From the IMG/VR virus record IMGVR_UViG_3300008117_000445, positions 1-64,000 of that record: DNA of 64,000 nucleotides. One strand, written 5' to 3'. Source of the DNA: a virus. A program made the translations under genes and the position numbers. A model generated the notes under the pieces. It was given only the letters and a program-made list of their open reading frames with translations. It searched no databases and had not been told where the DNA came from. Positions 25,021-42,185 of the stretch are shown here, piece after piece; the stretch's first letter is position 1; each line of letters begins with the position of its first letter.

Positions 25021-25024
25021 TATT

Positions 25025-25531
25025 ATGAACGAAAAACAAACTTACGACTACGGATGTGTAATGTTATATTTTGATTTCCCTGAGATCAAAAACCTACATT
25101 CACTAATTGATGAAGAAGACATCTACACCGAAGATGGTGATAGAAGTTTTGGTTTAGAAGACGAACCACACACCACATTACTCTATGGATTGCATGATGA
25201 TGTTACTGAAGGTGATGTTGCAGATGTGATAAACAACTTTGATTATGGAACTTGTAGAATTACAAATCCATCTTTATTTGAAAATGAAAAATATGATGTT
25301 TTGAAGTTTGATACTAGTGGACCAAACTTACATGAAACAAATAAAGAGTTATCAAATTATCCACACACAACATCATTTCCTGACTACCACCCCCATTTAA
25401 CAATCGGTTATTTAAAATCAGGAATGGGTAAGAAATATGCAAATAAATTAAAAGGAATCCAATTCAAATTGGAACCAACCCATGTTGTATATTCTATGGC
25501 AAATGGAGATAAAATAAATTATAACATATAA
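25025..25531 (+). CDS. 2H phosphoesterase superfamily (LigT / 2',3'-cyclic phosphodiesterase-like)
   Basis: two H-x-T-x motifs: EPHTTLLYGL and HPHLTIGY. Confidence 0.55.
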   Translation: MNEKQTYDYGCVMLYFDFPEIKNLHSLIDEEDIYTEDGDRSFGLEDEPHTTLLYGLHDDVTEGDVADVINNFDYGTCRITNPSLFENEKYDVLKFDTSGPNLHETNKELSNYPHTTSFPDYHPHLTIGYLKSGMGKKYANKLKGIQFKLEPTHVVYSMANGDKINYNI

Positions 25532-25546
25532 TTAAATAATTAAAAT

Positions 25547-26230
25547 ATGTTAGGACTAAAAAAGGTTGAACCCGGTAGATGGAAAAATGATTGGATGGAA
25601 TTTTATCCCGGATTTCACAAGTGGAACTTTAGGTACCTACCAAGTAATGGGTTAAATTGGAAATTGGATTTTTGTTTTATTTGGGGGCAATTTTATATGA
25701 CGTTCAAAACAAACAAACCACCAAAATATAAAGATGAAAGACCAACATATGGATTTTATTTTTATTCTGTAAGTAATTGGTTTCCTGATTCATTATGGTT
25801 CCACAGAGGAACTAAAAAAATAAAATGTATAGATTTACCTTGGCAATATGATTGGGTTAGAACTTCCGTATTTTTAAAGGATGGAACTTGGACTCACGAT
25901 ACTAAAAAAAATAAAACGGACTTTTATGACCCAAAGTTTAAAAATAAAATACATACAGAAAAACATACCTATTATTATATCCACGATGGTATTTTTCAAG
26001 AAACCGAAGCCATTTGTACACTAGAAGAACGAGAATGGAGACCCAAATGTTTTAAATGGACTGGTTTGTTTAAAAAAGTAAGAACAACTATTGACGTTGA
26101 ATTTACAAATCCCATCGGTAGTGGTGTTAACACATATAAAGGTGGTACTTACGGTGCCGGACATGATATTAAAAAAGGTGAAACAATTAGGGATTGTCTA
26201 ATAAGGATGATGGACGAAAGAAAGTTTTAA
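25547..26230 (+). CDS. hypothetical protein (Trp/Tyr-rich)
   Basis: 227-aa ORF. Confidence 0.45.
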   Translation: MLGLKKVEPGRWKNDWMEFYPGFHKWNFRYLPSNGLNWKLDFCFIWGQFYMTFKTNKPPKYKDERPTYGFYFYSVSNWFPDSLWFHRGTKKIKCIDLPWQYDWVRTSVFLKDGTWTHDTKKNKTDFYDPKFKNKIHTEKHTYYYIHDGIFQETEAICTLEEREWRPKCFKWTGLFKKVRTTIDVEFTNPIGSGVNTYKGGTYGAGHDIKKGETIRDCLIRMMDERKF

Positions 26231-26232
26231 AC

Positions 26233-26862
26233 TTATTTTATAACCACTTTTTCACCACCCCCCCTTATTAACCCATTAACCGATTTTAGATCCGAAATTA
26301 TAATTTTCCCATCCAAGTTTGAACCAACCCAAACGTATTTCTTTTTTCCAATGAACAAAACTTTAAAAAACTTGGATGGTATTGGAATTTTACTACCACC
26401 CATATAGTTAACACCATCATAAATAACACCAGTTATAATAACCACATCTTTTTTGTATTTGGAAACAGAATCCTCAACTGATCTCTCCAACCTCATCCAA
26501 GAACCCCTATTAAATTTTGGTAACTGAGGTACCGAATTAAACAAACTAAACGATCTATAATTAAGTTCATTGTCATATGATGTGATGTGTGATGGTGTTA
26601 AATGTCCCATATCATATCCGGATTTGTAGTAGTATTTTGTGTCGTACTTATCAACAAATACGTCCTGAAACCAGTTGTCACTTCTTTCTTTGTCAAGTTT
26701 TAAAAAATCAACATATTTTAGTTTGTGTATGGATATAAAAGTACACGTATCTTTTGTTAATATGAGTGTCATATCACCGTGGTTGATTTTTATATTGTTT
26801 GTTTTAATTGTTTGACAAAAATAGTTAAGTGATATTAGTAGGAAGAATAATAATGTTCGCAT
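26233..26862 (-). CDS. secreted DNA/RNA non-specific endonuclease (Endonuclease_NS-like)
   Basis: signal peptide MRTLLFFLLISLNYFCQ; GYDMGHLTPSH resembles the DRGH active-site motif. Confidence 0.5.
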   Translation of the reverse strand: MRTLLFFLLISLNYFCQTIKTNNIKINHGDMTLILTKDTCTFISIHKLKYVDFLKLDKERSDNWFQDVFVDKYDTKYYYKSGYDMGHLTPSHITSYDNELNYRSFSLFNSVPQLPKFNRGSWMRLERSVEDSVSKYKKDVVIITGVIYDGVNYMGGSKIPIPSKFFKVLFIGKKKYVWVGSNLDGKIIISDLKSVNGLIRGGGEKVVIK

Positions 26863-26983
26863 AATGAATCTTTAAAAATAAATATTAATCTTTAGTAAAG
26901 AAATAGTCGTTGGCTGTAAATATATGTCAAAATGTTTGGTCAGATTAAATATTATCATTATATTTGTTCATATTTATTAATTG

Positions 26984-28453
26984 ATGAAGTATTTACTTTC
27001 CATATTGACACTTATTGTAACTTTTTTTACTGTAGCACAAATTACAGCAAACGGAAATTCTGGAGTTAGACCAACGGTTTATACAAACGGATCACCAAAC
27101 AATTCAATCTTTATTTGGTGTGGTGTAGGAAATAATGGCTCATTGACTTATACACCAACTTCCGGAACGGCACCTTATACATTCAACTGGTTCTCATATT
27201 CCAATACAACTTTTTCTTGGAATACATTAACCACCCAAAACGGCGCAACATCTACTTTAAATAATTTGTCTAACGGTGGTTATAGAATTGAGGTTTATTC
27301 ATCAAACGGTACATTGGTTGGTTGTGATATTGCTTGGGTTTGGAATGTAAATAATCAAGTTACAGCCTCAAACACACAAGTTAGTTGTGGGTCAACAAAC
27401 TTAATTGGAACCAATACAGTTACACCAACATCGTTTACTTATTATAATCCACCACCACCACAATCAATAATAAACACCAACACAACAATTAAAGTTTGTT
27501 TTACCGGAAATCACACTTGGGTTTCAGATTTGGGATTCTATTTAATTGGACCGGCTTCTTGTGGTAGCCCAGTGATTACCTTATCACCAAATCCAGGATC
27601 CAATAGTCAAGGTAGTATTTGTAATGGTGGAAACAACTTCAATAACCTTTGTTTTACAAATGCGGCAAGTCCCAATTTAAATGTATGTTCATCACCAACA
27701 CCATTAACTGGAACTTATGATTCGTATGGACCAACTCCGGGAACCAATATTAATTTTTCACCACTTATTGGTTGTAACGCGGCACAAGGTGGTTGGAGAG
27801 TTCAGGTGTTTGATTGTATTTCATCCGATGTTGGTAAGTTAACTAATGCAAACATAACTTTTTCAAATTTAACATCCATTTGTGGTTCACCAACAACCAT
27901 AACTTATAGTTCAGGAACAATAAATTCAAACATAAATGATAATTCATGTTCACAAGCGACGGCATCCGTTTATCAGGTACCACCACCGACAAATTTAACA
28001 ACACCAATAACAATAAATGGTACCACCACAATTCAATGGACAAGTAATCCATCGGCAACAATTGCAAATTCAACAAACCTTAATACAACGACAACAAACG
28101 TGACACAACAAACAACATTTACTTTAACTTCAACATTCAGTGTAGGTGGAACAAATGTTTGTGTTTCAACAGCTCAAACAACCTTTACACCAACACCATT
28201 AACCGCCAACTTTACGTTTGTTAATCCATCTTGCTTTGGTTTGTGTGACGGTTCGGCAACCGCAACGCCAACATCAGGAACTTTACCTTATATATATGTT
28301 TGGACACCAAGTGGTTCCACACAAACAATATCTAATTTATGTTCCGGAACATATAATGTAACGGTCACTGACGCTAATGGTTGTACTGTAAGTGGAAGTG
28401 TAACCTTAACGGACCCAAATCAGTTAATATTAACCCCAATAAACCATAATTAA
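26984..28453 (+). CDS. secreted SprB-repeat / Ig-like-domain protein (Thr/Asn/Gly-rich)
   Basis: signal peptide; repeated ..[10 protein letters not shown].., ..[27 protein letters not shown].. SprB-like repeats. Confidence 0.5.
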
Positions 28454-28464
28454 ATCTAAACACC

Positions 28465-29040
28465 ATGAAAAAAGTAATTTTAATTTTAGCTCTTTTAGTA
28501 TCAAGCTCTTTGTTCTCACAACTTGTAACAACAAACCCTGATACGGTCTGTTTCCAATCAACAACACTATCCACTTATACAGTACAAAATATCGGTTCGG
28601 GGACCTATACGTGGACAATACCAGGTTCAGCAACCCTAGTTTCTGGACAAGGAACAAACTCAATCCAAGTGGATTGGTCAGCAACACCAGCCGGTCTTAT
28701 AAATAACGCCATATCTGTAACATATACTTCGGGTTCTGGATGTCAAGCTCAACCGGTAACATTAAACGTGTTGATCTACCAATTCACACCAACTATTGCT
28801 GCTTTAGGTCCATTTTGTGAATCTGATCCTTGTGTTACTTTGGTTGGTTCACCGGTTGGTGGTACTTGGTCTGGAACCGGAGTCTCTGGAAATCAATTTT
28901 GTCCAGATAACGTGGCAAACGGAACGAACGCAATTTCCAATGTGACATATACTGTAACAAATGGTGGATGTACGTTCTCAACTTCAACAACAGTACCAGT
29001 ATTTGGTACACCAACTTTATCACCAATTCAACATAACTAA
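28465..29040 (+). CDS. secreted Ig-like repeat protein
   Basis: signal peptide MKKVILILALLVSSSLFSQ; C-terminus TLSPIQHN parallels LTPINHN of upstream gene. Confidence 0.5.
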   Translation: MKKVILILALLVSSSLFSQLVTTNPDTVCFQSTTLSTYTVQNIGSGTYTWTIPGSATLVSGQGTNSIQVDWSATPAGLINNAISVTYTSGSGCQAQPVTLNVLIYQFTPTIAALGPFCESDPCVTLVGSPVGGTWSGTGVSGNQFCPDNVANGTNAISNVTYTVTNGGCTFSTSTTVPVFGTPTLSPIQHN

Positions 29041-29043
29041 AAT

Positions 29044-29610
29044 ATGAAATTTATTTCATCCATATTGGTTTTAATCATATGTTTTGTTTCTTCAGCACAA
29101 GATACACTTGAGATCTGTGCTGGGGAACCCAAAACGGTTAGCTATTTTGCCTCATCAACGAGTGATGGTGAAAATACCTGGAAGGTCAATGGTGAAACAT
29201 TTATTGGTGATGAATTAACTTATACTTATACTCAAGGTGGTTTATACAATATAACTGTACGTAGAGAAAATTGGTTATGTTATGTTGAACAAACACTCCA
29301 AGTTTTTGTAAGTGAATGTCCAGGTGTTACTTTTTGGGTACCAAACACATTTACACCAGATGGTGACGAATTTAATCAATATTTTGGCCCAGTAATGAAT
29401 GAAGGATTTGATGTTGATGGTTATTCGTTTTTGATTTTTAACAGATGGGGTGAAACCATATTTAGTTCATCTGACCCAAATGGAAAGTGGGATGGTATGT
29501 ACAATAACGTTTTATGTCAATACGGAACTTATAGTTGGGTGTTAAGGTTTAATGTTAAAGGTGATGATGGTGTCATTCAAAAATCAGGTAATGTTAATTT
29601 ACTTCGTTGA
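29044..29610 (+). CDS. protein with T9SS type-B C-terminal sorting domain (gliding motility-associated CTD)
   Basis: signal peptide + C-terminal VPNTFTPDGDEFNQYFGP...FNRWGETIF...DPNGKWDGMYNNVLCQYGTYSWVL. Confidence 0.6.
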   Translation: MKFISSILVLIICFVSSAQDTLEICAGEPKTVSYFASSTSDGENTWKVNGETFIGDELTYTYTQGGLYNITVRRENWLCYVEQTLQVFVSECPGVTFWVPNTFTPDGDEFNQYFGPVMNEGFDVDGYSFLIFNRWGETIFSSSDPNGKWDGMYNNVLCQYGTYSWVLRFNVKGDDGVIQKSGNVNLLR

Positions 29611-29613
29611 TTG

Positions 29614-30231
29614 TTAGTCCCACCACCATCTCATTCTTTCTTTTAAAATTTTAAACAATAAATTATGCGCTTTTTCTTGATTATGTTTTGAAACATAATG
29701 ACATAAATCTCTTTTATTTAGATTGGGATTTTCTTTTAATATTTTACGGACACTTGATGGGTATTTTTTTAAAAAATCATCATAAGTCTCACTTGAAACC
29801 TCTATATCTGCGGACCTAAGATTTTCATTACCTTCAACCGGTTTAAATACAACATCAGAGTCTTCATAATCAAGATATTCAGTGTTGTAGTATTCGTCTT
29901 TAACTCTTTCAATTAGGTTTAAAACAATAGTCATATCACGATTATCTCTATCAACCTCCATATGACGATTTGCATAGATAATTTCTTTTCTTTGAAATTC
30001 TATTTTCTTTTGAAGGATTGTAAAAATATACCAGTCATCCCAATCCTTATCTTTATATAAAGTTGGTATCCATCTAAAGATATTTTTTATACCTCCGATA
30101 AAGTATCTTATTCTCCAATTTGTGTTTCGCCATATGAATGGAAATACCCCCTTTCTATTCCAAGCGGATTCTTCAGGTATTGTTAGTTTCTTGTAATTTT
30201 TCATTGTATTGTAAATATAACGAAAAAACAA
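29614..30231 (-). CDS. hypothetical protein (possibly continuous with the overlapping TM ORF 30173..30376 via frameshift)
   Basis: 205-aa ORF; upstream overlapping ORF encodes hydrophobic helices. Confidence 0.4.
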   Translation of the reverse strand: MFFRYIYNTMKNYKKLTIPEESAWNRKGVFPFIWRNTNWRIRYFIGGIKNIFRWIPTLYKDKDWDDWYIFTILQKKIEFQRKEIIYANRHMEVDRDNRDMTIVLNLIERVKDEYYNTEYLDYEDSDVVFKPVEGNENLRSADIEVSSETYDDFLKKYPSSVRKILKENPNLNKRDLCHYVSKHNQEKAHNLLFKILKERMRWWWD

Positions 30232-30388
30232 CCAAAAAGTTAATAGTTAAACTCAAAAAAATCTCAAATAAATAATGCCAATTTGTTTGTGTTAAGGAAA
30301 CGTGGGTTCCAAACCACATAAATGAACCATATTTGTTCATAACTTCAATTAGTAGATATTTCAAAAAGTTTTTCATATATTTATAATT

Positions 30389-30661
30389 ATGGCGAAGGAC
30401 TTAAATACACCAAACCCAAAACTAGAGGTTGGTGATAGAATTGTTTTAATTCACATGGATGGTGAAGAAGTTCCGATTGGATCAAAAGGTAAAGTTGTTG
30501 GAATAAATAACCAACCAAGGTATAGACCGACAGACTCTGGTATGGGGTATTGGGTTGAGTTTTATGACTCAGATACCGATGAATTTATTTCCAAACTGAC
30601 TTTGATTCCGGAAGATGATATTTGGTTGTATGACAAAGATTATTATCAAAGTTTGGGTTGA
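30389..30661 (+). CDS. hypothetical protein
   Basis: 90-aa ORF. Confidence 0.4.
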   Translation: MAKDLNTPNPKLEVGDRIVLIHMDGEEVPIGSKGKVVGINNQPRYRPTDSGMGYWVEFYDSDTDEFISKLTLIPEDDIWLYDKDYYQSLG

Positions 30662-30705
30662 TATCCTTAATTTTTTTTTCTATTATTTGTTGTAAACAAA
30701 AAATT

Positions 30706-31026
30706 ATGGAAAAAAACGACATCTTAAAATACGGAGAAATTCAATATCTAAAAGGACGACTTGATGAATTATTTAAGTCATTTTATGTCATCACAGATTT
30801 ACACGAAAGTAGATTAATAGACCAGCGAATTGAAAAATATTTAAATAAGTTGAAACATGTGGATGAGGTTTCATACTACCTATATGAGGTTGAATTAACA
30901 TCAAGAAGAAAATCAAAAGAAAGATCCAAAAAAGAAGTTAAAACATTGTTGGAAAATGTTTTGAATGAGGAAAATATTTCAGAAGAACTTATTGAAAAAA
31001 TTAAAAAACAAATTGATAAATATTAA
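30706..31026 (+). CDS. hypothetical coiled-coil protein
   Basis: track ORF 30658..31026, internal Met MEKNDIL. Confidence 0.4.
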   Translation: MEKNDILKYGEIQYLKGRLDELFKSFYVITDLHESRLIDQRIEKYLNKLKHVDEVSYYLYEVELTSRRKSKERSKKEVKTLLENVLNEENISEELIEKIKKQIDKY

Positions 31027-31037
31027 TTAATTTTTGT

Positions 31038-31049
31038 TATATTTGTATC
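31038..31049 (+). promoter_or_regulatory. TATATTTGTA -7 box abutting the ATG (leaderless-type promoter)
   Basis: ttgtTATATTTGTAtcATG; same box before the genes at 35622, 38360, 40004, 46787. Confidence 0.4.
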
Positions 31050-31538
31050 ATGAAAAAGAGGTTAACATTTATATCGGATACACATACAAAACACAATTTG
31101 TTGGATGGGTTTTTACCTGGTGGTGATATATTGTTGTGTGCTGGAGACATATCCAGTCGTGGTTATGTTACCGAATTAGAGAATTTCTTTGGATGGTATG
31201 ATAAAATAGATAACTACGACACAAAAGTTTTTATCGCAGGTAATCATGATTTTGGGTTCCAGGATGATCCAGAAAAAATAAAAGGTTTGCTCACCGGTTA
31301 TAAAACAATAGACTACCTTCAAGATGATTGGATGTTGGTTGGTGAGGATTATGATAAATTGGTTAAAATCTGGGGTAGTCCATGGCAACCTGAATTTCAT
31401 AATTGGGCATTTAATTTACCTCGTGGTGAAAAACTAATGGATAAGTGGAACTTGATACCAAAAGATGTTGATATACTTGTAACTCACGGACCCGCTTTTG
31501 GTAAATTAGATTTTGTTCCATATGACAGAAACAAATGA
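31050..31538 (+). CDS. metallophosphoesterase (calcineurin-like)
   Basis: DTHTKHN, GDISSRG, GNHD motifs. Confidence 0.6.
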   Translation: MKKRLTFISDTHTKHNLLDGFLPGGDILLCAGDISSRGYVTELENFFGWYDKIDNYDTKVFIAGNHDFGFQDDPEKIKGLLTGYKTIDYLQDDWMLVGEDYDKLVKIWGSPWQPEFHNWAFNLPRGEKLMDKWNLIPKDVDILVTHGPAFGKLDFVPYDRNK

Positions 31539-31572
31539 AATTGAGTTTGTTGAAAATTAATGGTTGGATCTG

Positions 31573-33153: not shown

Positions 33154-33156
33154 TTT

Positions 33157-33615: not shown

Positions 33616-33618
33616 AAA

Positions 33619-34005
33619 TTAAAAATTAACCCAAGCCTGCACCTTAAATTTTAAATCAATAGGTGAACCATAAGTGTACAGATCAAAAGAAAAATAATTT
33701 TTAAAAATATCTTCAATATCACTTCTTAATGGACGACTATTTTTTATTTCTTGATCTGTTAATTTAAATTTTAATGTGAATACCATTCTATCAACAACAG
33801 GATTCTCCATACCCAATTTTACGGATCCTAATTTAACTTTTTTCATACTTGTTTCAACTTCAAGTAAATTAGGAAATTCAGAATGAAGGTAATCAATTAT
33901 TTGGTCCTTCATACTTTCTAACCTACCCAACTCCTTATAGTAATGATCAATAAATTCTTGACCCTGAAGTTCCTCATTTAATATTTTTCTAATTAATTTC
34001 TCCAT
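33619..34005 (-). CDS. leader-family protein (MEKLIRKILNEELQGQE)
   Basis: track ORF 33619..34035, internal Met. Confidence 0.45.
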   Translation of the reverse strand: MEKLIRKILNEELQGQEFIDHYYKELGRLESMKDQIIDYLHSEFPNLLEVETSMKKVKLGSVKLGMENPVVDRMVFTLKFKLTDQEIKNSRPLRSDIEDIFKNYFSFDLYTYGSPIDLKFKVQAWVNF

Positions 34006-34058
34006 TATATCATAATAAATAGTTTGATATTTCAAAATAAATTATATATCTTTGTCCC

Positions 34059-35600
34059 ATGGAATTAAATGAAAAACTGGCAAAATTAATCTTTCAAGAG
34101 TTTGAAGACTCAATTAAAGGTACCGACATCTATAATCACGAAGGTTCCATGTGGTTAATTTTTACAGAAGAAAGAAAATGGGTTGTTGAATTTACAAAAC
34201 AAAAAACCTTATGGTATAATTATAAACATTTTAATGACATACTGGTTTTATTTGGCATGGAACTAAGTGAAGGTGCCGAATATATCAAAAAATGGTATGA
34301 AGACAAATTCATTTTTAATACGGTAAAACAAAATGCTTCAACATTACTATACGTTGATAATGTTATTGATAATGGTGTGAAAGAGACAGATAAATCATAC
34401 TCCAATTATCGTTTGTGTGTTGAAAACACCATTCAAAATGGGGTGAAACACATCTGTCGGGGATCTTATGAGAATACCCCTCTTGCTGAAGACATCATTA
34501 AAAATGGAGTTAAAAAAGTTGATGACTCAATTAAGGAAAGATTATTTTTTGTTGAAGACACCATTCAAAATGGGGTGAAGATTATGGATATTGATAGAGG
34601 TTCTTATTTAAGTTTTGTTGAAAATACTATTAAAAATGGCGTAAAAAATATCGTTTACGCAGGACCTGATCAAACATTTTGTGTTGAAGAAGCCATTCAA
34701 AATGGAGTGAAGGACACCCAATGGAATGATTTTGCTCGTTGGAATATTATTGACTACACCATTCAAAATGGGGTGAAGGACACAAATTGTAAATTTGAAT
34801 TCACTTCACAAGGAATTAACGACGCAATTAAAATTGGATTTAAAGATACCGACCCAAAAACCTACCAACCAAATGATAGGATTGAAGATGTAGTTGAAAA
34901 TGGGGTAAATGTTATTAGTTGGGCTCATCCCACCGCAAATTTCACAAATCAGGTTGAAGGTATTATTCAAAATGGGGTGAAGAACATATATTGTGGTTGC
35001 AACGAAACCTTACCGACTATAGAAGACACAATTAAAAATGGGGTAAAAGATATGTGGTGTATTGAAAGAACTAACACCTTTGATGTTGAAGATACCATTC
35101 AAAATGGGATTAAAAATACCCAATCGTTTGATGGTAAATCTTTGAAATTGGTTAATAAGATAATAAGCGATGGCGTAAAACGTACTGAATGGAACGGTTC
35201 TGATTTACCAACAGGTAAAGTTGAAGACACAATTCAAAATGGAGTTAAACACGCACAATTTGATAATGATTACACCAAAGAGTATGTTGGTAACATAATT
35301 CAAAATGGAGTTAAAGATGTGAAAGAAATATATGAACATACTTTAAACAGTGGTTTATTTGAGATTAATTGTAAAAAGGCAATAAAAAAAGGTGTTAAGT
35401 ATGTTTTTGAGGGAAAAGTGCAAGCATATTTAGTAAATGATGTTATTGAGGATGGTGTTAAAGAAGTTGAATATTATGATGGAGATGCCGAAGTTTTAGT
35501 TAATGAAGCAATTGAAAATGGTGTTAAATATATGATGTCAGGAAGTGAATTTAAAAATAATCAAGTAGAAGATGTTATTAAATATAGTGTTAAATTATAA
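34059..35600 (+). CDS. novel repeat protein: ~19 x 23-aa repeats with core (V/I)(E/D)(D/N)TIQNGVK
   Basis: NGVK recurs every ~23 residues from aa ~110 to C-terminus; promoter TAtcTTTG 5 nt upstream of ATG. Confidence 0.55.
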   Translation: MELNEKLAKLIFQEFEDSIKGTDIYNHEGSMWLIFTEERKWVVEFTKQKTLWYNYKHFNDILVLFGMELSEGAEYIKKWYEDKFIFNTVKQNASTLLYVDNVIDNGVKETDKSYSNYRLCVENTIQNGVKHICRGSYENTPLAEDIIKNGVKKVDDSIKERLFFVEDTIQNGVKIMDIDRGSYLSFVENTIKNGVKNIVYAGPDQTFCVEEAIQNGVKDTQWNDFARWNIIDYTIQNGVKDTNCKFEFTSQGINDAIKIGFKDTDPKTYQPNDRIEDVVENGVNVISWAHPTANFTNQVEGIIQNGVKNIYCGCNETLPTIEDTIKNGVKDMWCIERTNTFDVEDTIQNGIKNTQSFDGKSLKLVNKIISDGVKRTEWNGSDLPTGKVEDTIQNGVKHAQFDNDYTKEYVGNIIQNGVKDVKEIYEHTLNSGLFEINCKKAIKKGVKYVFEGKVQAYLVNDVIEDGVKEVEYYDGDAEVLVNEAIENGVKYMMSGSEFKNNQVEDVIKYSVKL

Positions 35601-35621
35601 AATTAGTTGTATATTTGTATT

Positions 35622-36014
35622 ATGGAAAAAAAACTTGTGATATGTCGCGGAATTTGTGGTGCTGGAAAATCAACATTTGCTAAAACATTGGGTGGAAAAC
35701 ATTATGAAGCCGATATGTATTTTATTAATCCAACTACCGGTGAATATAAATTTGATGGGACAAAAATTAAAAACGCCCACGCTTGGTGTTTAGATAGGGT
35801 TAAAACAGATATGGCTGTTGGTAGAGATAAAATAGTCGTTTCAAATACCTTCACACAAGAATGGGAGTTCCAACCATACTTTGAACTAGCAAAACAGTAT
35901 GGATATAAAGTGTTTTCAATAATTGTTGAAAATCGTCACGAAGGAATAAACCAACACGGAGTTCCAGAAGATAAAATAGAACAAATGAAAAACAGATTCA
36001 GTATAAAGTTATGA
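35622..36014 (+). CDS. P-loop NTPase, polynucleotide-kinase-like
   Basis: Walker A ICRGICGAGKSTFAK; track ORF starts at TTG inside promoter box, first ATG MEKKLVI. Confidence 0.55.
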   Translation: MEKKLVICRGICGAGKSTFAKTLGGKHYEADMYFINPTTGEYKFDGTKIKNAHAWCLDRVKTDMAVGRDKIVVSNTFTQEWEFQPYFELAKQYGYKVFSIIVENRHEGINQHGVPEDKIEQMKNRFSIKL

Positions 36015-36664
36015 AATTCAAAACATTAGAAACAACAGGAAAAGTCTGGATTAGTTCGGATACGCATTTCGGTCACAAAAATTTGTGTCGTGGAGTAACA
36101 AATTGGAGAACCCAGGACGGTGAAATTCCAATTGAATCAACAAGAGATTTTCAAACCATTGAACAAATGAATGAAAGGATAGTTGATGGTATTAACTTTA
36201 TGGTAGGTCAAGATGATACATTAATTATGTTGGGTGATGTTTCATTTGGTGGTTTTGAGAATATCGGAATATTCCTTGATAGATTGGTTTGCAAAAATAT
36301 TCATTTAATACTTGGAAATCATGATACACACATCGAAAAAAATAGAGAAGAAATTCAAAATAGATTTTTGAGTGTACAACATTATCTGGAGGTTAGAATC
36401 AACGATAAAGATTTTGTTTTGTGTCACTATCCACTACAAAGTTGGCACGGTCTAAATAAGGGTGTAATCCAATTACATGGGCACGTACACCTTAGTCCAG
36501 ATAAGAAATTTGGTAATGGAAAAAAAATGGATGTTGGTATGGATGGAAACGGATTGAATCCGTATAGTATTGATGAAATAATCAAAATTATGGATAAAAG
36601 ACCAGTTGGGTCCGATATGTCCGGAGATCACCACCTGGATGATTTGGTTGGAGTTGTTGGGTAA
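36011..36664 (+). CDS. calcineurin-type metallophosphoesterase (Pnkp-phosphatase-like), co-transcribed with the kinase
   Basis: SSDTHFGH, GDVSFGG, GNHD, HGHVH motifs; 4-nt overlap with kinase gene. Confidence 0.65.
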   Translation: MKFKTLETTGKVWISSDTHFGHKNLCRGVTNWRTQDGEIPIESTRDFQTIEQMNERIVDGINFMVGQDDTLIMLGDVSFGGFENIGIFLDRLVCKNIHLILGNHDTHIEKNREEIQNRFLSVQHYLEVRINDKDFVLCHYPLQSWHGLNKGVIQLHGHVHLSPDKKFGNGKKMDVGMDGNGLNPYSIDEIIKIMDKRPVGSDMSGDHHLDDLVGVVG

Positions 36665-36691
36665 AACCATAACTCCAACATATTTATATGT

Positions 36692-37903
36692 ATGAAAATC
36701 ATTATAACTGAATCTCAATTAAAACTTATTAAAGAAGCGGTTGGCGTTCCGGAAGGAATATTAAAAGCCGGTGAAGAACTATTTAAAATTGTTGCTTCCA
36801 ATCTAAAAAAAATCAACAATAAAGATAATAAACACGAATTCCACATAACTGAGGAAGAATTACAAATTTCTGATGTTACAATTGATTTCATTAAAATTAC
36901 AGTATCAGTTGAAGAAATTGAAGGTTATGATGGTAAGCCTGTTATCGCATCAATGGGTGTAAATAACGCATTTAGGTTTGATAAAGGAATAATGATGCAA
37001 GTAAGCAAAGTTGATAAGGTAATTGAATTGGAAATTAATTTCATTGTACCAAAAGAATGGGAACCGCAAGACTTATATGAAACATTCATATCAGACGAAA
37101 CACATAATGAATCAGTTATGGCCCACGAAATAATGCACAAATTTCATCGTACAAAAAAAACAAAAGGGTTTGTTGGCGACATTGCCGATTATCAAGCATA
37201 TTCATCTGGGAAAATAAGATTCAATATTCCGGTTCTTGATGATTTTATGCTATATAGTTATTATATCCAAGCTGCCGAAAATACTGTTAGACCAACTGAG
37301 GTTGCCTCAAGGATGATTAAAAAAGGAATAACAAAAGATCAATTTAAAGATTTTCTTAAAGAAGATGAGACATTTAAACAATTAAAACAAATCCAGAATT
37401 TTACTTATGATTATTTGATAAGTAGTTTACGTAAACAAATGGACAGAATTGATGGGTTAATAAAACATATTGGTGATGATCCGAGCAAAATGTCCGTAGA
37501 TTACAAAATTGAGTTTATTTTAAAAATAGCATATGTCAATCTCGTTAATTTAAAGATTGAAATATTTGATAACTATTTTTATGATAATGCGGAGAAGTTC
37601 CTTCAATCTATGGGTGGTTTGTTTGGTAAAGTGAGTAAAGAAAAAGAAGATGTTAGAAAAAAGTTCGTTAATCACGTTGTAAAATATGAAAATAAAGAAA
37701 TGGACTTTTTCAAAGACGAATGTGAACGGTTTAATTATGTTGCAACAAAACTTATGAAAAAAATATCAAAAATCTATGCACTCCTTCCTGATGAAAAGGA
37801 ACAAACAAATGAATCAATATTGGATTGGGAATTACACCAAAAACTTATGGAAAAGAAGTATGGTGAAAGACCAATTCAAAAATCTTATAATTTCAAAAAA
37901 TAA
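36692..37903 (+). CDS. putative HExxH zinc metallopeptidase with shared N-terminal leader (MKIIITESQLKLIKEAV)
   Basis: MAHEIMHKFH zincin motif. Confidence 0.45.
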   Translation: MKIIITESQLKLIKEAVGVPEGILKAGEELFKIVASNLKKINNKDNKHEFHITEEELQISDVTIDFIKITVSVEEIEGYDGKPVIASMGVNNAFRFDKGIMMQVSKVDKVIELEINFIVPKEWEPQDLYETFISDETHNESVMAHEIMHKFHRTKKTKGFVGDIADYQAYSSGKIRFNIPVLDDFMLYSYYIQAAENTVRPTEVASRMIKKGITKDQFKDFLKEDETFKQLKQIQNFTYDYLISSLRKQMDRIDGLIKHIGDDPSKMSVDYKIEFILKIAYVNLVNLKIEIFDNYFYDNAEKFLQSMGGLFGKVSKEKEDVRKKFVNHVVKYENKEMDFFKDECERFNYVATKLMKKISKIYALLPDEKEQTNESILDWELHQKLMEKKYGERPIQKSYNFKK

Positions 37904-38087
37904 TTTGTTTTATTAAAAAACATTCTTTACCTTTGTAAGGTGAAAAAACCATGTAAAGAATGTCCACATCTTATTCGTAATCGTCATAATGATATGATTG
38001 TGGAGTTCGGTGAGAGAACGGGAAAGAAACATAATTGTCATATGACGGAAGGAAAAAAAGATTTGTGGAATGTAACGGATAAGAAAC

Positions 38088-38285
38088 TTGAATGTTATGG
38101 AAGTAGAAATGTCTAAAGAAATGGATGAGTTCATCAACAAGTTGGATTCGTTATGTTGGGAATATCACATTGAAATAAAACCCACACATCCAGTGCCTGA
38201 TGATGAATACCCAACTATATCCATTATAAATGGTGATGAAGTTGTAAAATTAATTTATATTGATGGTGATGGAAGAGGTAAATAA
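38088..38285 (+). CDS. hypothetical protein
   Basis: 65-aa ORF. Confidence 0.35.
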   Translation: MNVMEVEMSKEMDEFINKLDSLCWEYHIEIKPTHPVPDDEYPTISIINGDEVVKLIYIDGDGRGK

Positions 38286-38359
38286 CGTCCGATGATAAAC
38301 AATCGTTTTAATGTTGTTGATCATTTGTTATATTAAAAAATAATTCTTATATTTGTCAA

Positions 38360-38668
38360 ATGAAAGTAGAATCAAAATTTGGAACATATACAATGGAAAC
38401 AATAAGTAGTACAAAAATAAGTACAGACAAACTCGCAGTGTTTGTTGAACGACTTAAAAAAATAGGAATTGATGTAAAACTATCAGGAAACTTTCCTTGG
38501 GTTTATATTAGTGAAATCAATGGTATAAGAGTTAAAGAAAATTTCCAAGCAAACCACGGATTTACTGTAATGTTTCTTCCAGGAAGAAATGATTCACCAC
38601 CATCTGAATTTACAGACATCAAAGAAATTTTTAATTTAATAAGAAAATATAAAAATGAAAAACGATAA
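38360..38668 (+). CDS. hypothetical protein
   Basis: 102-aa ORF, TATATTTG box upstream. Confidence 0.45.
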   Translation: MKVESKFGTYTMETISSTKISTDKLAVFVERLKKIGIDVKLSGNFPWVYISEINGIRVKENFQANHGFTVMFLPGRNDSPPSEFTDIKEIFNLIRKYKNEKR

Positions 38669-39077
38669 GTTATTTTTAGACGACCTTAGAATACCAAAGG
38701 ATGCTATAGGTTTGGTCCCTGATAAACATAATAAGTTTTATTGGGAAAATGATTGGGATATTGTAAGAAACTACGATGAGTTTGTTCAATATACTGAGGT
38801 TAATGGTGTTCCAGAGTTTGTTTCATTCGACCACGACTTGGCTGATTTTCATTACGACTTAAAACCTGAAGATTATGAAAATATGTCCGAAGATGAAATG
38901 GTTATGAAATTCGGTAGTATGGAAAAAACAGGACTTGATTGTGCAAAGTTCCTTGTTGAATATTGTGCAGATGAAAACCAACCATTACCTAAATACTTGG
39001 TACATTCAGCAAATCCTGCAGGAAAAGAAAATATTGAGAAATTTTTAGAAAACGCAAAAAAACATTTAAATATATAA
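38655..39077 (+). CDS. hypothetical protein
   Basis: 140-aa ORF. Confidence 0.45.
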   Translation: MKNDKLFLDDLRIPKDAIGLVPDKHNKFYWENDWDIVRNYDEFVQYTEVNGVPEFVSFDHDLADFHYDLKPEDYENMSEDEMVMKFGSMEKTGLDCAKFLVEYCADENQPLPKYLVHSANPAGKENIEKFLENAKKHLNI

Positions 39078-39078
39078 T

Positions 39079-39447
39079 ATGGTCCTTACAAAAATAACAA
39101 TGGACGATAAATATAAAAAAATAGACGAAAAATCAAAAATAATTACAGATAGACTTGGTTGTAAGATTGATGATGGTATTAGAGAATTAATAGTTTTACT
39201 AAACTATAACAATATTGGGACAACACAATCTTGTTGGGGACATAAAAACTGGGGTGAAAAATTTCCTTGGTTTGATATTGATGGTAAATACTATGATGAT
39301 ATAAAATCAATTATTTTTGATTTGGAAATTGGGTTTGAAAAGTATGATGTTAATACCATACGTTTTTATCCTAAATGTAAAACACTAATAAAGGGTAGAA
39401 GAGAATTTAATAAATTGAAAGATAAATTAAAACAAACTAATAATTGA
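39079..39447 (+). CDS. hypothetical protein (N-terminus MVLTKITMDDK paralogous to next gene)
   Basis: 122-aa ORF. Confidence 0.45.
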   Translation: MVLTKITMDDKYKKIDEKSKIITDRLGCKIDDGIRELIVLLNYNNIGTTQSCWGHKNWGEKFPWFDIDGKYYDDIKSIIFDLEIGFEKYDVNTIRFYPKCKTLIKGRREFNKLKDKLKQTNN

Positions 39448-39454
39448 ATATAAT

Positions 39455-39976
39455 ATGGACCTTACTAAACTAACAATGGACGAACTTATTTCTTTGAAAA
39501 ATAAAATTGAGGGACTTATTCATTCATATGAAGATGGATATTTGTATATCTGTTCTGTTCGTCAGTTCGGTAGTGTGTGGGAAGAAAGACCCACGAGTCT
39601 ATATTCATTAAAAGAACTTTGTGGTGAATACAATGGTGACAACGGTATTGTTGATGTTTATACTAACAACCCAAATTTAGAATTTCCTGAAATGGAGTTT
39701 TATAATTATGGTGATGTTATGTATATCAAATCAGAAGATGATTATAGAGAGTGGATTAAACACACTAAAAGAAAAAACCTTATTGAAGATGTAACACAAC
39801 GACTTGATGAATGGGAAAGTAGAGAAAATGTACCGTTTCAATATAGACCTTCTTTTGCTCCAATATGGACAAGAGAAGATGTTAGTGAATGGGTTACAGA
39901 ATTTGAAAGTAATAAGTGGGATTTTGTTGAACCAGTTTCAATGAAGAAAAATTATTTTGAAGAAAATGATGATTAA
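39455..39976 (+). CDS. hypothetical protein (N-terminus MDLTKLTMDEL)
   Basis: 173-aa ORF. Confidence 0.45.
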   Translation: MDLTKLTMDELISLKNKIEGLIHSYEDGYLYICSVRQFGSVWEERPTSLYSLKELCGEYNGDNGIVDVYTNNPNLEFPEMEFYNYGDVMYIKSEDDYREWIKHTKRKNLIEDVTQRLDEWESRENVPFQYRPSFAPIWTREDVSEWVTEFESNKWDFVEPVSMKKNYFEENDD

Positions 39977-40003
39977 TTAAAAAATTATTTGTATATTTGT
40001 ATT

Positions 40004-40156
40004 ATGAAAAATTTATCTATTAGCTTAATTTACTTAGGGTTTTTCGCCCTTATCGGAACCGCAACTTACATTACTAATAATGGTAATTGTTTGTGGGCCT
40101 TGTTATTAACACCAAGTTTAACTTATAAACAAGAAGATGATGGAGAATCAGAATAG
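40004..40156 (+). CDS. small hydrophobic upstream ORF (50 aa) overlapping the start of the RNA ligase gene
   Basis: MKNLSISLIYLGFFALIGTATYITNNGNCLWALLLTPSLTYKQEDDGESE; directly after TATATTTGTAttATG. Confidence 0.3.
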   Translation: MKNLSISLIYLGFFALIGTATYITNNGNCLWALLLTPSLTYKQEDDGESE

Positions 40157-41255
40157 TGTTGCGTATGTAGGAAAAATAGGTTCAGTATCTGAAATACCAG
40201 GTGCTGACAATATAGAATTAGTAACTGTTGGTGGATGGAACGCCATAACCAAAAAAGGAGAATATAAGGTTGATGATTTAGTGGTTGTCGCAACTACTGA
40301 CGCTGTTATACCACAAAAATTGTCAGATGGTTTAGGTGTTACTAACTACCTTCGTAAAGGGCAAAGGGTTAGAACTGTAAAACTTCGTGGTGTTTATTCT
40401 GAATGTTTGTTAATACCGGTTACTTTCGTACCTGAAAAATATCGTTATGAAGGTTCCGATTGTATGGAATTACTTGAAATATTCAAGTTTGAACCACCAG
40501 TTAAAACAATAACTTTATCATCTGGTGGACGTAAAGTAAAGTACCACCAAAATCCAAACTTCCACATATACTACAAGTTTCCAAACCAAAAGAATGTTCC
40601 GGATATGTTTAATGAGGAAGATATGGTTGTTATAACCAGAAAATTACATGGAACAAATTCCAGATTTGGTATAATAAGAAAGAAAAAACTTACTATATGG
40701 GACCGAGTTAAAATGTTCTTTGGTGACAAATGGGCTGGATTTGATTACATAGTAGGTAGTCATAATGTTGAGAAAGGATCTGACTCACAAGGATTTTATG
40801 ATACCAATGTTTGGGAAGAAATATCCATAAAGTATAACATAAGAGAAAAATTGTGGCAACACGTAAAAGATACTTATGAATATCTTGAAACTGGATTCAT
40901 AATATATGGTGAAATATATGGTGCCGGTATACAGAAGAACTACGACTACTGTTTAACTGATATAAAGTTTGCTGGGTTTGATGTTGAGGTGGACGGTAAA
41001 TACGAAAGTTATCCGGCTGAAGTTACACACTTTGACGTAATGGATTTACCAAAGGTTGAACTTTTACATTGGGGTCATTGGGACAAAGAAAAACAAGATA
41101 GTTTTGTTTATGATAACTTTATAGAAGGAACCAAAGTTCCACACGAAGGTGTTATAGTAAAACACGAATCTGGTGATCGTAAAAAAATATCAAAATGTAT
41201 AAATCCTGGATATTTAATCGCAAGTGAAAAACATAATTATGGTGATTCACATTGA
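40137..41255 (+). CDS. RNA ligase, Rnl2 family
   Basis: nucleotidyltransferase motif I KLHGTN (T4 Rnl2 KIHGTN), downstream motifs consistent with the ligase fold. Confidence 0.6.
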   Translation: MMENQNSVAYVGKIGSVSEIPGADNIELVTVGGWNAITKKGEYKVDDLVVVATTDAVIPQKLSDGLGVTNYLRKGQRVRTVKLRGVYSECLLIPVTFVPEKYRYEGSDCMELLEIFKFEPPVKTITLSSGGRKVKYHQNPNFHIYYKFPNQKNVPDMFNEEDMVVITRKLHGTNSRFGIIRKKKLTIWDRVKMFFGDKWAGFDYIVGSHNVEKGSDSQGFYDTNVWEEISIKYNIREKLWQHVKDTYEYLETGFIIYGEIYGAGIQKNYDYCLTDIKFAGFDVEVDGKYESYPAEVTHFDVMDLPKVELLHWGHWDKEKQDSFVYDNFIEGTKVPHEGVIVKHESGDRKKISKCINPGYLIASEKHNYGDSH

Positions 41256-41984: not shown

Positions 41985-42185
41985 ATGGAAAAAATTGAAA
42001 TATATGTAAGGTTCGCAAACGAAGGTGTTTATTATGACAAAATAAAGTTAGATCCTTCAAAAATAAGTAATCCAAGGATTTTTACTCAAGAAGTATTTTT
42101 TGATATTGACGGGATTACAGTGGCTACAAGAAAAGAAGATTGGCAAAAGATAGAACAATGGAAAGAAACTGGCAAAAAGAATTAA
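41985..42185 (+). CDS. hypothetical protein
   Basis: 66-aa ORF. Confidence 0.35.
   Translation: MEKIEIYVRFANEGVYYDKIKLDPSKISNPRIFTQEVFFDIDGITVATRKEDWQKIEQWKETGKKN

Follow-up and report, generated by a model that had tools for sequence, protein, structure and literature searches.

Does this stretch of viral DNA carry one dispersed RNA-repair pathway? The window, by which we mean the whole 64,000-nucleotide stretch analysed here, comes from a large phage of Bacteroidota with an RNA-repair gene set aboard, and this gene set belongs to an already-known kind of system. An earlier note had joined four open reading frames into a single toolkit: a 2H phosphoesterase (25025-25531), a kinase (35607/35622-36014), a calcineurin-type phosphoesterase (36011-36664) and an RNA ligase (40137-41255). 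All four frames are there with the motifs quoted for them, and the Pfam families anticipated are recovered, the one for the 2H protein (2_5_RNA_ligase2) weakly. Domain matches and a conserved gene neighbourhood support a system for healing (kinase and phosphoesterase) and sealing (ligase). The same neighbourhood holds the kinase, phosphoesterase and ligase together; the 2H gene, rarely found near them, probably lies outside the group. We consider it reasonably likely that the window encodes an RNA end-healing and sealing system split among several short transcription units in the region of about 31-47 kb, with the 2H gene probably separate.

The healing and sealing genes

Together the kinase, metallophosphoesterase and ligase would make up a real module for healing and sealing RNA ends. 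The candidate P-loop polynucleotide 5'-kinase (35622..36014, +; 130 aa) carries the motifs GICGAGKST, EAD, SNT and ENRH and matches Pfam AAA_33 (1.9e-9), phrog_2071 (9e-40) and phrog_505, annotated 'polynucleotide kinase' (4e-6), with weak similarity to the kinase domain of Clostridium Pnkp (4mde, E 0.085). The reservation that it might instead be a dNMP kinase was not borne out: the Pfam search returned no dNMP-kinase match, and its homologues adjoin RNA ligases and, in the related locus L085, a HAD_PNKP-type phosphatase (2.5e-33). The stop codon of the kinase and the start codon of the phosphoesterase share the tetranucleotide ATGA, the translational coupling described earlier. The calcineurin-type metallophosphoesterase that follows (36011..36664, +; 217 aa) is a predicted 2',3'-cyclic/3'-phosphate end-healing enzyme, matching Pfam Metallophos (3.5e-7) and phrog_547 (2.4e-47); the metal-ligand motifs DxH, GD, GNHD, H and GHxH are invariant among its homologues. 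Its family is the larger of the two in phage records (1440 against 623 for the kinase), and it also turns up in phages without the kinase, immuto and Cellulophaga phi17:2 among them.

The ATP-dependent RNA ligase (40137..41255, +) has an N-terminal OB domain (PHA02142, 2.6e-15) and a C-terminal nucleotidyltransferase domain (RNA_ligase PF09414, 3.6e-11) with the adenylylation lysine in KLHGTN. This is the Rnl5 architecture of NgrRnl and DraRnl, and the family profile aligns with Naegleria Rnl5 (NgrRnl) over its full length (E 1e-54). Among NCBIfam models DRB0094/Rnl5 (3.6e-26) scores far ahead of Rnl2 (2e-5), with a score of 91.9 that lies below the Rnl5 equivalog cutoff of 151. The Rnl2 family, to which the ligase had been assigned, is ruled out by the OB domain, the full-length Rnl5 alignment and the NCBIfam scores; only motif I is Rnl2-like. 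The lysine-adenylate motif is retained: the lysine of motif I corresponds to NgrRnl Lys170 in the alignment, and 121/121 cluster representatives carry it. The KxHG subclade is large, comprising 119 of the 121, and corresponds to Pfam PHA02142 and phrog_968. The second ATG (40140) is the one used as start in relatives. The transcription unit is headed by a small ORF for a hydrophobic 50-aa product (40004..40156, +), which does overlap the ligase start, by 17-20 nt. A role as translational regulator, suggested previously, loses its footing among relatives: homologues occur in only 3/80 kinase loci, one of which retains the overlap.

Further repair-type genes surround the module. Between phosphoesterase and ligase lies a gene for a cRec (cyclic-phosphate processing Receiver) domain protein (38655..39077, +; 140 aa; cREC_REC PF20274, 3.6e-21, above cutoff), some homologues of which directly adjoin the kinase in related loci. 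Resolution of 2',3'-cyclic ends is predicted for cRec, and operon links to RNA ligases have been reported (PMC7824862). Downstream, a 192-aa HAD phosphatase of the 'Swiss Army Knife' RNA-repair type is encoded (46787..47365, +; HAD_SAK_2 PF18143, 9.6e-21, above cutoff). Upstream, a second, short metallophosphoesterase, MPE2 (31050..31538, +; 162 aa; Metallophos 2.5e-10), lacks the C-terminal GHxH and recurs beside the module, in four related loci and phage immuto. Directly 3' of the phosphoesterase, a position conserved in the window's lineage, is a 403-aa protein with an HExxH motif (36692..37903, +); it has homologues in 28/80 kinase loci, and no family match was found in Pfam, PHROG or NCBIfam. 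The first reading had mentioned neither cRec nor the SAK-type HAD enzyme, nor the promoter box that repair-type genes share.

A shared promoter box and a conserved neighbourhood

The box, TTGTATATTTGTATTATG (35607..35624, +), contains a Bacteroidota -7 element (TAnnTTTG) 4 nt 5' of the ATG. An identical copy stands at 39989-40006 and near-identical ones at 31035-31052 and 46772-46789. The 18-mer box has 5 matches against 0.52 expected, a number reached in 0/100 shuffles, and the four occurrences of its exact 13-mer all fall at start codons of repair-type genes: MPE2, the kinase, the small ORF/ligase unit and the HAD_SAK gene. In relatives the box is kept ahead of whichever gene opens the module. 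It has the features of a leaderless, promoter-like box placed 5' of repair-type genes.

The neighbourhood itself is conserved. In phages Kassivere, APECc02, KP2025, Aeromonas PAc, PaoP5, Gary and M5.1, an interval of about 2.5 kb contains phosphoesterase, Rnl1-like ligase and kinase; the three-gene cluster is present in 7/8 unrelated annotated phages, as well as in many IMG/VR contigs. The Rnl1-like gene of the annotated phages matches T4 Rnl1 (2c5u) at E 5e-6. The ligase slot of the module is filled by either the window-type ligase, directly 3' of the kinase in seven related loci, or the Rnl1-like one, in three others (about 150 nt downstream of the kinase in one of them). Thirty IMG/VR kinase loci are flanked by 6 kb or more on each side. 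The phosphoesterase is no more than 6 kb from the kinase in 19 of them, the ligase in 16 and cRec in 11; in 9/30 none of these is nearby, and a 2H gene is within that distance in 0/30. Because the neighbourhood is conserved, the association of kinase, phosphoesterase and ligase goes beyond chance.

The 2H gene and its neighbours

The 2H phosphoesterase (25025..25531, +; 168 aa; HTT...HLT, with the HxT/HxT tetrad H49/T51 and H124/T126) stands in other company. Directly 5' is a homologue of Tad6, a type I Thoeris inhibitor (24463..25020, +; Pfam Tad6 PF25188, 9.1e-15, above cutoff), and directly 3' a homologue of Acb3, a CD-NTase/CBASS inhibitor (25547..26230, +; Pfam Acb3 PF25187, 5.1e-28, above cutoff). 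The three genes probably form a small anti-defence islet that blocks host immune signalling. In 9/80 relatives Tad6 is no more than 6 kb from the 2H gene, directly adjoining it in the closest, and Tad6 or NARP1 genes (phage NAD+ reconstitution pathway, Adps/Namat) recur near 2H homologues. Acb3 is near the 2H gene in 0/80 related 2H loci and hence is a variable accessory gene.

Pfam matches of the 2H protein are weak, the best being Acb1 (4.8e-5, below the curated cutoff), followed by 2_5_RNA_ligase2 (1e-3). Its sole PHROG match is phrog_755 (4.9e-10), which T4 Acb1 matches at 5e-68, and Acb1 of phage BCSR5 is the top solved-structure match both by sequence and with Foldseek. With Acb1 (T4 57B, Erwinia phage FBB1; PMC9117128) it shares the 2H fold, the HxT/HxT tetrad, a similar size (168 against 152 aa), the PHROG and a location amid anti-defence genes. 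It is nonetheless very distant: hhalign against T4 Acb1 gives a probability of 37% over the second HxT region only. Given that it is flanked by Tad6 and Acb3, that its top matches are Acb1 and that the module is almost never adjacent, the 2H protein is more probably an Acb1-like cyclic-oligonucleotide phosphodiesterase acting against signalling, although it may instead be an RNA 2',3'-cyclic phosphodiesterase.

Could the 2H enzyme nevertheless belong to the repair module, opening 2',3'-cyclic ends as a CPDase of the LigT/Trl1 type, so that all four enzymes form the one pathway first proposed? 2_5_RNA_ligase2 is matched by 32/32 members of the 2H family, in one related locus (L155) the 2H gene follows phosphoesterase, kinase and ligase, in that order, and stands about 360 nt 3' of the ligase, and a CPDase role has been proposed for phage 2H enzymes (PMC7824862). 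Yet a 2H gene is within 10 kb of the kinase in 0/80 kinase loci, and the module is adjacent in 1/80 2H loci; in the window the gene is 10 kb away, in another operon, and lacks the promoter box common to the repair-type genes. A 2H CPDase would moreover leave a 2'-phosphate that requires a Tpt1/KptA-type enzyme, none of which was found among the window ORFs scanned, and 3'-end healing is already covered by the metallophosphoesterase, cRec and HAD enzymes. We regard this arrangement as unlikely.

Nor does a 'large tRNA complement' adjoin these genes, as had been stated. ARAGORN and Rfam (above threshold) report four tRNAs each, together five distinct genes and one weak candidate: tRNA genes at 1244-1317, 1985-2062, 2157-2234 (weak), 2524-2609 and 8554-8632 and a tRNA-like sequence of 120 nt at 2239-2358 (all +). 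These 4-6 genes, all at 1244-8632, are separated from the 2H gene by 16 kb and from the kinase by 27 kb.

Possible substrates of the module and likeness to known systems

A separate healing and sealing module could act as follows. A host ribotoxin, presumably a defence nuclease, would cut RNA and leave 2',3'-cyclic phosphate and 5'-OH ends. The metallophosphoesterase (36011) would open and remove the cyclic or 3'-phosphate to give a 3'-OH, probably aided by the cRec protein (38655) and by HAD phosphatases (46787, perhaps 47673), and the P-loop kinase (35622) would phosphorylate the 5'-OH. The OB-NTase ligase (40137), adenylylated on the KLHGTN lysine, would then seal the 3'-OH/5'-PO4 break, probably in a base-paired context by analogy with Rnl5. 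The 2H phosphoesterase (25025) would probably stay outside this pathway and most likely degrade cyclic-oligonucleotide immune signals as Acb1 does.

Polynucleotide kinase-phosphatases are generally active on DNA as well, and the three enzymes might mend nicks in DNA or RNA-DNA hybrids (genome nicks, ribonucleotide-containing primer junctions) rather than cleaved tRNA. Rnl5 is reported to seal nicked duplexes with an RNA 3'-OH strand, and Deinococcus without DraRnl to be sensitive to ionising radiation (PMC7261155), so the target of the ligase need not be tRNA; in L085 the module also adjoins a 301-aa ORF that by eye is a candidate UV-endonuclease-like protein. Against this, an Rnl1-like enzyme is interchangeable in the ligase slot, RNA-repair contexts define the cRec and SAK-HAD families, and the cassette lies amid counter-defence genes (NARP1, Tad6) and not replication genes, which makes nick repair improbable. 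Less probable still is that kinase, metallophosphoesterase and cRec act on small nucleotide or NAD-derived molecules (immune signals, NAD+ salvage intermediates) with the ligase a mere neighbour: a nucleotide-metabolic role is conceivable because NARP1 genes (Adps, Namat) lie directly 3' of the kinase in Kassivere, PaoP5 and M5.1 and within 2 kb in Gary, they are nearby in three further loci (L155 among them), and cRec action on cyclic ADPR-type molecules has also been proposed (PMC7824862), but the window has no NARP1, NARP1 is within 6 kb of the kinase in 1/30 loci against 16/30 for the ligase and 19/30 for the phosphoesterase, and the kinase has a HAD_PNKP phosphatase as partner in L085 and finds its matches among polynucleotide-kinase PHROGs and in the kinase domain of Clostridium Pnkp rather than among nucleoside kinases.

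Read as an RNA-repair module, the genes can be set beside several known systems. The ligase resembles NgrRnl (Rnl5) in its domain order, N-terminal OB then C-terminal nucleotidyltransferase, and in the conserved nucleophile Lys170, Glu227, Glu312, Lys326, Asp53 and Lys121. It differs in that five NgrRnl residues are replaced (the ATP/metal contacts R4N, R149N and D172H, and also D146N and R190H), that motif I is KxHGxN, as in T4 Rnl2, and that about 20-25 aa are inserted after motif I. The Pnkp-Hen1 system of Clostridium thermocellum likewise combines a P-loop kinase, a calcineurin-type phosphoesterase and an RNA ligase. Membership of this bacterial Pnkp type, which the earlier note had claimed, is not supported: the window has three separate proteins where Pnkp is one polypeptide, the ligase is not Rnl4, a Hen1 methyltransferase was not found, and neither kinase nor phosphoesterase matches the NCBIfam polynucleotide kinase-phosphatase (Pnkp) family.

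T4 Pnkp and Rnl1, which reverse anticodon-nuclease damage by PrrC, follow the same logic of 5' kinase, 3' phosphatase and RNA ligase. Related phages also have the Rnl1-like ligase in the slot and, in L085, a T4 HAD_PNKP-type phosphatase. In the window, as had been recognised, there is no fused kinase-HAD protein: kinase and phosphatase are separate genes, a metallophosphoesterase is the main phosphatase and the ligase is of the OB-NTase kind. The catalogue of phage RNA repair by Iyer, Anantharaman, Krishnan, Burroughs and Aravind (2021; PMC7824862), citing Burroughs and Aravind 2016, describes systems built of the same parts: polynucleotide kinase, phosphoesterases (HAD, calcineurin-like, HD, 2H, cRec), ATP-dependent RNA ligases and phage tRNAs. 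Calcineurin-like healing enzymes are rare in the jumbo phages surveyed there, whereas here the calcineurin-type enzyme is the main partner of the kinase, and the three-gene cassette recurs in many non-jumbo myovirus and T5-like lineages.

The kinase-phosphoesterase-ligase cassette

We find that the window encodes a P-loop kinase (35622-36014; Pfam AAA_33, 1.9e-9) and a calcineurin-like metallophosphoesterase (36011-36664; Pfam Metallophos, 3.5e-7, score 31.3 against a cutoff of 21.5), both carrying the motifs read by the earlier note, and that the two genes are translationally coupled as it had said, the ATG of the phosphoesterase overlapping the kinase stop as ATGA. Polynucleotide 5'-kinases are recognized by a Walker A motif GxxxxGK[ST], an acidic general base after strand 2 and one or more lid arginines. 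In the window kinase GxGKST, E30/D32 and R106 are invariant, a weak alignment to the Clostridium Pnkp kinase domain (4mde) being the sole basis for their equivalence to T4 D35/R126. A dNMP kinase, the identity that was to speak against a repair role, is rejected, as Pfam, PHROG and NCBIfam gave no match to such a family. The metal ligands of the phosphoesterase (D17/H19, D76, N103/H104, H139 and H156/H158) do not vary among 17 homologues and follow the DxH...GD...GNH[DE]...H...GHxH pattern of calcineurin-like metallophosphoesterases. Its AlphaFold model is poor (pLDDT 55), the retrievable homologues are all about 80% identical, and PDB sequence searches returned nothing useful. The pair had been taken to be of the bacterial Pnkp type, an assignment that does not hold; bacterial Pnkp is a single polypeptide of kinase, calcineurin-type phosphatase and Rnl4 ligase, partnered with Hen1, whereas here kinase, phosphoesterase and ligase are separate genes and the ligase has the Rnl5 architecture. 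NCBIfam at E<=0.01 gave no Pnkp family match for kinase or phosphoesterase, and the scanned window ORFs included neither a methyltransferase nor Hen1.

Both families are common in phages, with 623 phage records for the kinase (phrog_2071) and 1440 for the phosphoesterase (phrog_547). Among eight annotated phages of different genera, seven (Kassivere, APECc02, KP2025, Aeromonas PAc, PaoP5, Gary and M5.1) carry a homologous phosphoesterase, an Rnl1-like ligase (E 5e-6 to T4 Rnl1, 2c5u) and the kinase within about 2.5 kb; Vibrio phage Gary has the order ligase, kinase, phosphoesterase, its kinase-to-phosphoesterase order being that of the window. We also collected 80 related IMG/VR loci (L-numbers) using the kinase alignment, 30 of them with at least 6 kb on either side. 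In these fully flanked loci the phosphoesterase lies within 6 kb of the kinase in 19/30, a ligase in 16/30 and a cRec domain gene in 11/30. The ligase of the window type stands immediately 3' of the kinase in L054, L055, L064, L068, L074, L076 and L086; an Rnl1-like ligase takes the same slot in L057 (about 150 nt downstream), L060 and L089, and lies about 1.6 kb downstream in L077 and L078. The ligase slot may be interchangeable between Rnl1-like enzymes and the KxHG OB-nucleotidyltransferase type. In L085 the kinase is partnered instead by a T4-type HAD_PNKP phosphatase (2.5e-33). That varied 3'-phosphatases and ligase families swap around the kinase is the strongest evidence that it serves as a polynucleotide 5'-kinase in end healing, and genomic context thus supports this assignment for the candidate enzyme. 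In the lineage of the window a conserved run of small genes (36692-39976) is inserted between phosphoesterase and ligase.

The surroundings of the cassette hold further genes. Directly upstream of the kinase, a 513-aa protein of about 19 degenerate 'IxNGVK' repeats (34059-35600, plus strand) has its own TAnnTTTG box, and the phosphoesterase is followed by a 403-aa protein with an HExxH motif (HEIMH) and without a family match (36692-37903, plus strand), whose gene is directly 3' of the phosphoesterase in 28/80 related loci. Close relatives (L010, 3591-4553; L011, L013, L014, L019, L034, L041 and others) have an extra 320-aa ORF between kinase and phosphoesterase, which remains ATGA-coupled to the kinase. 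In Vibrio phage Kuja (L174, 3998-5044) the kinase homologue is fused to a C-terminal domain of about 215 aa and annotated 'DNA ligase', from a start that cuts off the P-loop. The NARP1 genes of NAD+ reconstitution (Adps, Namat) immediately adjoin the cassette in Kassivere (L003), PaoP5 (L172), Gary (L173), M5.1 (L175), L016, L074 and L155, Gary and M5.1 having an Adpp/macro-domain phosphatase nearby as well. An AAA+ ATPase gene (42140-43219, plus strand) frequently comes after the ligase region in relatives.

The RNA ligase gene (40137-41255; Pfam PF09414, 3.6e-11) is present with its KLHGTN motif. It had been placed in the Rnl2 family, a placement that fails because the nucleotidyltransferase domain stands at the C-terminal end, the chain running only about 20 aa past motif V. 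Similarity to T4 Rnl2 is confined to about 35-90 residues, and the likeness is one of motif I (KLHGTN) only. An N-terminal PHA02142 OB domain (residues 9-95, 2.6e-15) precedes the RNA_ligase domain (residues 164-353), the arrangement of OB-fold and C-terminal nucleotidyltransferase that characterizes Rnl5. The window ligase alone matches the structure of the Naegleria Rnl5 ligase NgrRnl (5cot) through its OB domain (E 4e-13), and a profile of this ligase with eleven homologues aligns 5cot residues 5-335 at E 1e-54, as against 1e-4 over a short stretch of T4 Rnl2. NCBIfam scores fall below the equivalog cutoffs for both RNA_lig_DRB0094 (TIGR02306; 3.6e-26, 91.9 bits against 151) and Rnl2 (TIGR02307; 2e-5, 24 bits against 197). 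When the catalytic residues of NgrRnl (PMC7261155) are mapped onto the window ligase, K170, E227, E312 and K326 align with K168, E258, E336 and K352, so that the motif I lysine, the motif III and IV glutamates and the motif V lysine of Rnl5 are all kept, as are OB residues Asp53 and Lys121. Arg4, Asp146, Arg149, Asp172 and Arg190 are replaced by N, N, N, H and H, and with R4N, R149N and D172H contacts to the ATP gamma-phosphate and metal are not kept. Given these replacements and a score under the equivalog cutoff, the ligase belongs to a distinct subclade and is not an Rnl5 orthologue. In an alignment of 121 full-length sequences (119 cluster representatives at E<1e-30, the window protein and NgrRnl) KxHG occurs in 119 and the motif I lysine in every one; the KxHG OB-ligase subclade is thus large and no peculiarity of the window phage. 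Loss of the adenylylation lysine, which the earlier note had named as evidence against the repair toolkit, is therefore not seen.

Further repair-type genes and a common promoter box

Two repair-type genes had been overlooked. A cRec domain protein (38655-39077; PF20274, 3.6e-21, 76.1 bits against a gathering cutoff of 27) is encoded 1.1 kb upstream of the ligase, and its homologues adjoin kinase or phosphoesterase in L026, L027, L038, L077, L089 and others, so that both the score and the linkage to RNA ligases or NAD processing expected of the family are in place. Members of this family are predicted to resolve 2',3'-cyclic phosphate ends and are linked to RNA ligases (Iyer et al., PMC7824862); PDB sequence searches with the window protein returned nothing useful. 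The second gene, at 46787-47365, encodes a HAD_SAK_2 phosphatase (9.6e-21), a family described as 'HAD domain in Swiss Army Knife RNA repair proteins'. Two other proteins of HAD type (43904-44368 and 47673-48074) have weak matches only. A short metallophosphoesterase of 162 aa (31050-31538, plus strand) is without the C-terminal GHxH metal-ligand motif, yet keeps its length across relatives; together with a 205-aa protein of no assigned role (29614-30231, minus strand) it recurs beside the cassette in relatives and in Flavobacterium phage immuto.

Four repair-type genes share a promoter-like box, TATATTTG, on the plus strand at 31035-31052, 35607-35624, 39989-40006 and 46772-46789, with looser copies at 34047 and 38348. 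Ahead of the kinase (35607) and of the unit formed by a small ORF and the ligase (39989) stands one and the same 18-mer, TTGTATATTTGTATTATG; allowing up to three mismatches it has five matches against 0.52 expected, and none of 100 shuffles reached five. The exact 13-mer TATTTGTATNATG occurs four times in the window, and in all four copies the ATG serves as start codon of a repair-type gene, namely the short phosphoesterase, the kinase, the small ORF/ligase unit and the HAD_SAK gene. The core of the box fits TAnnTTTG, which we take to be the Bacteroidota -7 promoter element, and is spaced from the ATG by four bases, which implies transcripts with no leader or almost none. Since the looser copies head other genes, the box marks a promoter class and is not a repair-specific signal. 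On related contigs it is conserved ahead of whichever module gene stands first. The small ORF itself (40004-40156), 50 aa long and hydrophobic, does overlap the ligase start. Its suggested role as a regulator of the ligase is rejected as unsupported, the ORF being found in 3/80 relatives and the overlap kept in one.

The large tRNA complement beside which the toolkit was said to lie shrinks, in the window, to four genes by ARAGORN and to four above threshold plus two weak candidates by Rfam. All lie within 1244-8632, at least 16 kb from the 2H phosphoesterase gene and 27 kb from the kinase. Odd forms are found on the plus strand at 1244-1317, 2157-2234, 2239-2358, 2524-2609 and 8554-8632. One has the anticodon UCA, reading UGA, in two, CUA stands in an anticodon loop that is atypical or enlarged, one has a loop of 8 nt (ARAGORN 'tgga'), and a 120-nt tRNA-like sequence has acceptor ends in common with the neighbouring tRNA. 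The stop-codon recoding suggested by the UCA and CUA forms is rejected for the window, whose genes end in TAA (49), TGA (18) or TAG (5), no gene being extended by TAG or TGA read-through. Inside the tRNA cluster lies a freshwater-1 RNA motif (RF02979; 1679-1740, plus strand; 70.3 bits against a gathering score of 72, E 5e-15).

The 2H gene and its neighbours

The fourth member of the proposed toolkit, the 2H phosphoesterase gene (25025-25531), exists with its motifs, HxT standing at H49/T51 and H124/T126. Its membership in the toolkit is not supported; the gene is probably an anti-signalling one, together with Tad6 and Acb3 homologues. The 2H fold is certain, the AlphaFold model having a pLDDT of 94 and strong fold matches to 2H proteins only. 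All of 29 homologues keep H49-T-T51 and H124-L-T126; as this tetrad is common to all 2H enzymes, it does not discriminate Acb1. Pfam matches are weak both to Acb1 (PF23474; 4.8e-5, 23.6 bits against a cutoff of 27) and to 2_5_RNA_ligase2 (1e-3). The sole PHROG match, phrog_755 (4.9e-10), is the family of T4 Acb1/57B (5e-68), and the best solved structure by sequence and by Foldseek alike is phage Acb1 (9q2g). Four bases separate the gene from a Tad6 homologue upstream (9e-15) and fifteen from an Acb3 homologue downstream (5e-28); both homologues exceed Pfam cutoffs, and the three genes form one operon, an anti-defence islet at 24463-26230 (plus strand). Acb3 acts as a CD-NTase inhibitor; Tad6 acts on Thoeris, where it blocks an NAD+-processing site. 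Among 80 loci related through the 2H gene, 9 have Tad6 and 5 have NARP1 genes within 6 kb of it; Acb3 is missing from all 80 and is therefore a recent accessory gain. Sequence matches and neighbourhood lead us to favour, with some reserve, a cyclic-oligonucleotide phosphodiesterase of Acb1-like role; known Acb1 anti-CBASS nucleases cleave 3'3'-cGAMP and cyclic trinucleotides and so relieve CBASS.

An RNA 2',3'-cyclic phosphodiesterase, which would return the 2H enzyme to a four-enzyme repair pathway as in the earlier note, is possible and the less likely of the two. It is consistent with the weak matches of all 32 family members to 2_5_RNA_ligase2 as well as to Acb1, with a weak hhalign comparison to T4 Acb1 (probability 37%, the second HxT region alone aligned) and with one locus, L155, where the 2H gene directly follows the ligase. 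In none of the 30 fully flanked kinase loci does the 2H gene lie within 6 kb of the kinase.

Proposed repair pathway and comparison with known systems

The analysis shows domain identities, intact catalytic residues, gene coupling, neighbourhood and a common promoter; we infer that the module acts on RNA ends and opposes a host defence. A host ribotoxin would leave 2',3'-cyclic phosphate and 5'-OH ends; the metallophosphoesterase, with the cRec and HAD enzymes, would restore the 3'-OH, the kinase would make the 5'-phosphate, and the ligase, adenylylated on its motif I lysine, would seal the break, by Rnl5 analogy probably in a base-paired context. Rnl5 enzymes (NgrRnl/DraRnl) seal duplexes nicked between 3'-OH and 5'-PO4 where the 3'-OH strand is RNA, and as this ligase type seals duplex nicks, the damage reversed may be cuts in base-paired RNA. 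By the same analogy the target may be tRNA stems or rRNA cut by a ribotoxin of the Bacteroidota host, rather than classical anticodon-loop cleavage. Two further rival readings, both less likely, are repair of nicks in DNA or hybrids and processing of small molecules, the latter suggested by the NARP1 genes that adjoin the cassette in several phages. In the lineage of the window the cassette may have been dispersed into a small regulon with an identical leaderless promoter, cRec and SAK-HAD being added. Joined into one, a widespread large-phage RNA-repair cassette with a swappable ligase, tied here into a promoter-marked regulon and directed at cuts in base-paired RNA, is a tentative reading and rather unlikely to hold in full.

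The window comes from a large Bacteroidota phage, probably of freshwater origin. Among cultured phages it is closest to those of Flavobacterium, Cellulophaga and Maribacter. Many relatives occur in IMG/VR, on contigs reaching about 300 kb, and type IX secretion cargo domains are encoded in the window. Megablast of 24-42 kb against phages gave no match; the lineage is known only from metagenomes. SprB repeats, PKD domains and a CHU_C type IX secretion sorting domain, and a DNA/RNA non-specific endonuclease with a signal-peptide-like N-terminus, are encoded at 26981-29610 (plus strand) and 26233-26862 (minus strand); the proteins are possibly exported through the host T9SS. Mobile elements are a TnpB/OrfB_IS605 gene (2971-4239, minus strand) and an I-TevI-like GIY-YIG homing endonuclease that comes straight after thymidylate synthase (21132-22770, plus strand). 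The plus strand also encodes a Band 7/SPFH protein (13536-14480) and a ClpP protease (45354-46082).

RNA repair by phages is the classic counter to tRNA-cutting abortive-infection nucleases, and to our knowledge T4 Pnkp/Rnl1 is the only such system studied in depth. Kits of the present composition have been catalogued by the Aravind group (PMC7824862), so that the one in the window belongs to an already known kind and the picture of phage RNA repair is unchanged in kind. The annotation is corrected on two points: Rnl2 is dropped for the ligase, and the 2H gene is probably an anti-signalling one that goes with Tad6 and Acb3. The refinements are a three-gene cassette with an exchangeable ligase, a KxHG OB-ligase subclade, a promoter-marked regulon and the Tad6-2H-Acb3 islet, which offer concrete candidates for biochemistry and for tracing the opposing host nuclease. 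Beside the T4 enzymes there stands a different three-enzyme solution, of metallophosphoesterase, separate kinase and OB-type or Rnl1-like ligase, conserved across many phage lineages and, in this freshwater Bacteroidota phage, expanded by cRec and HAD enzymes and marked by a common promoter.
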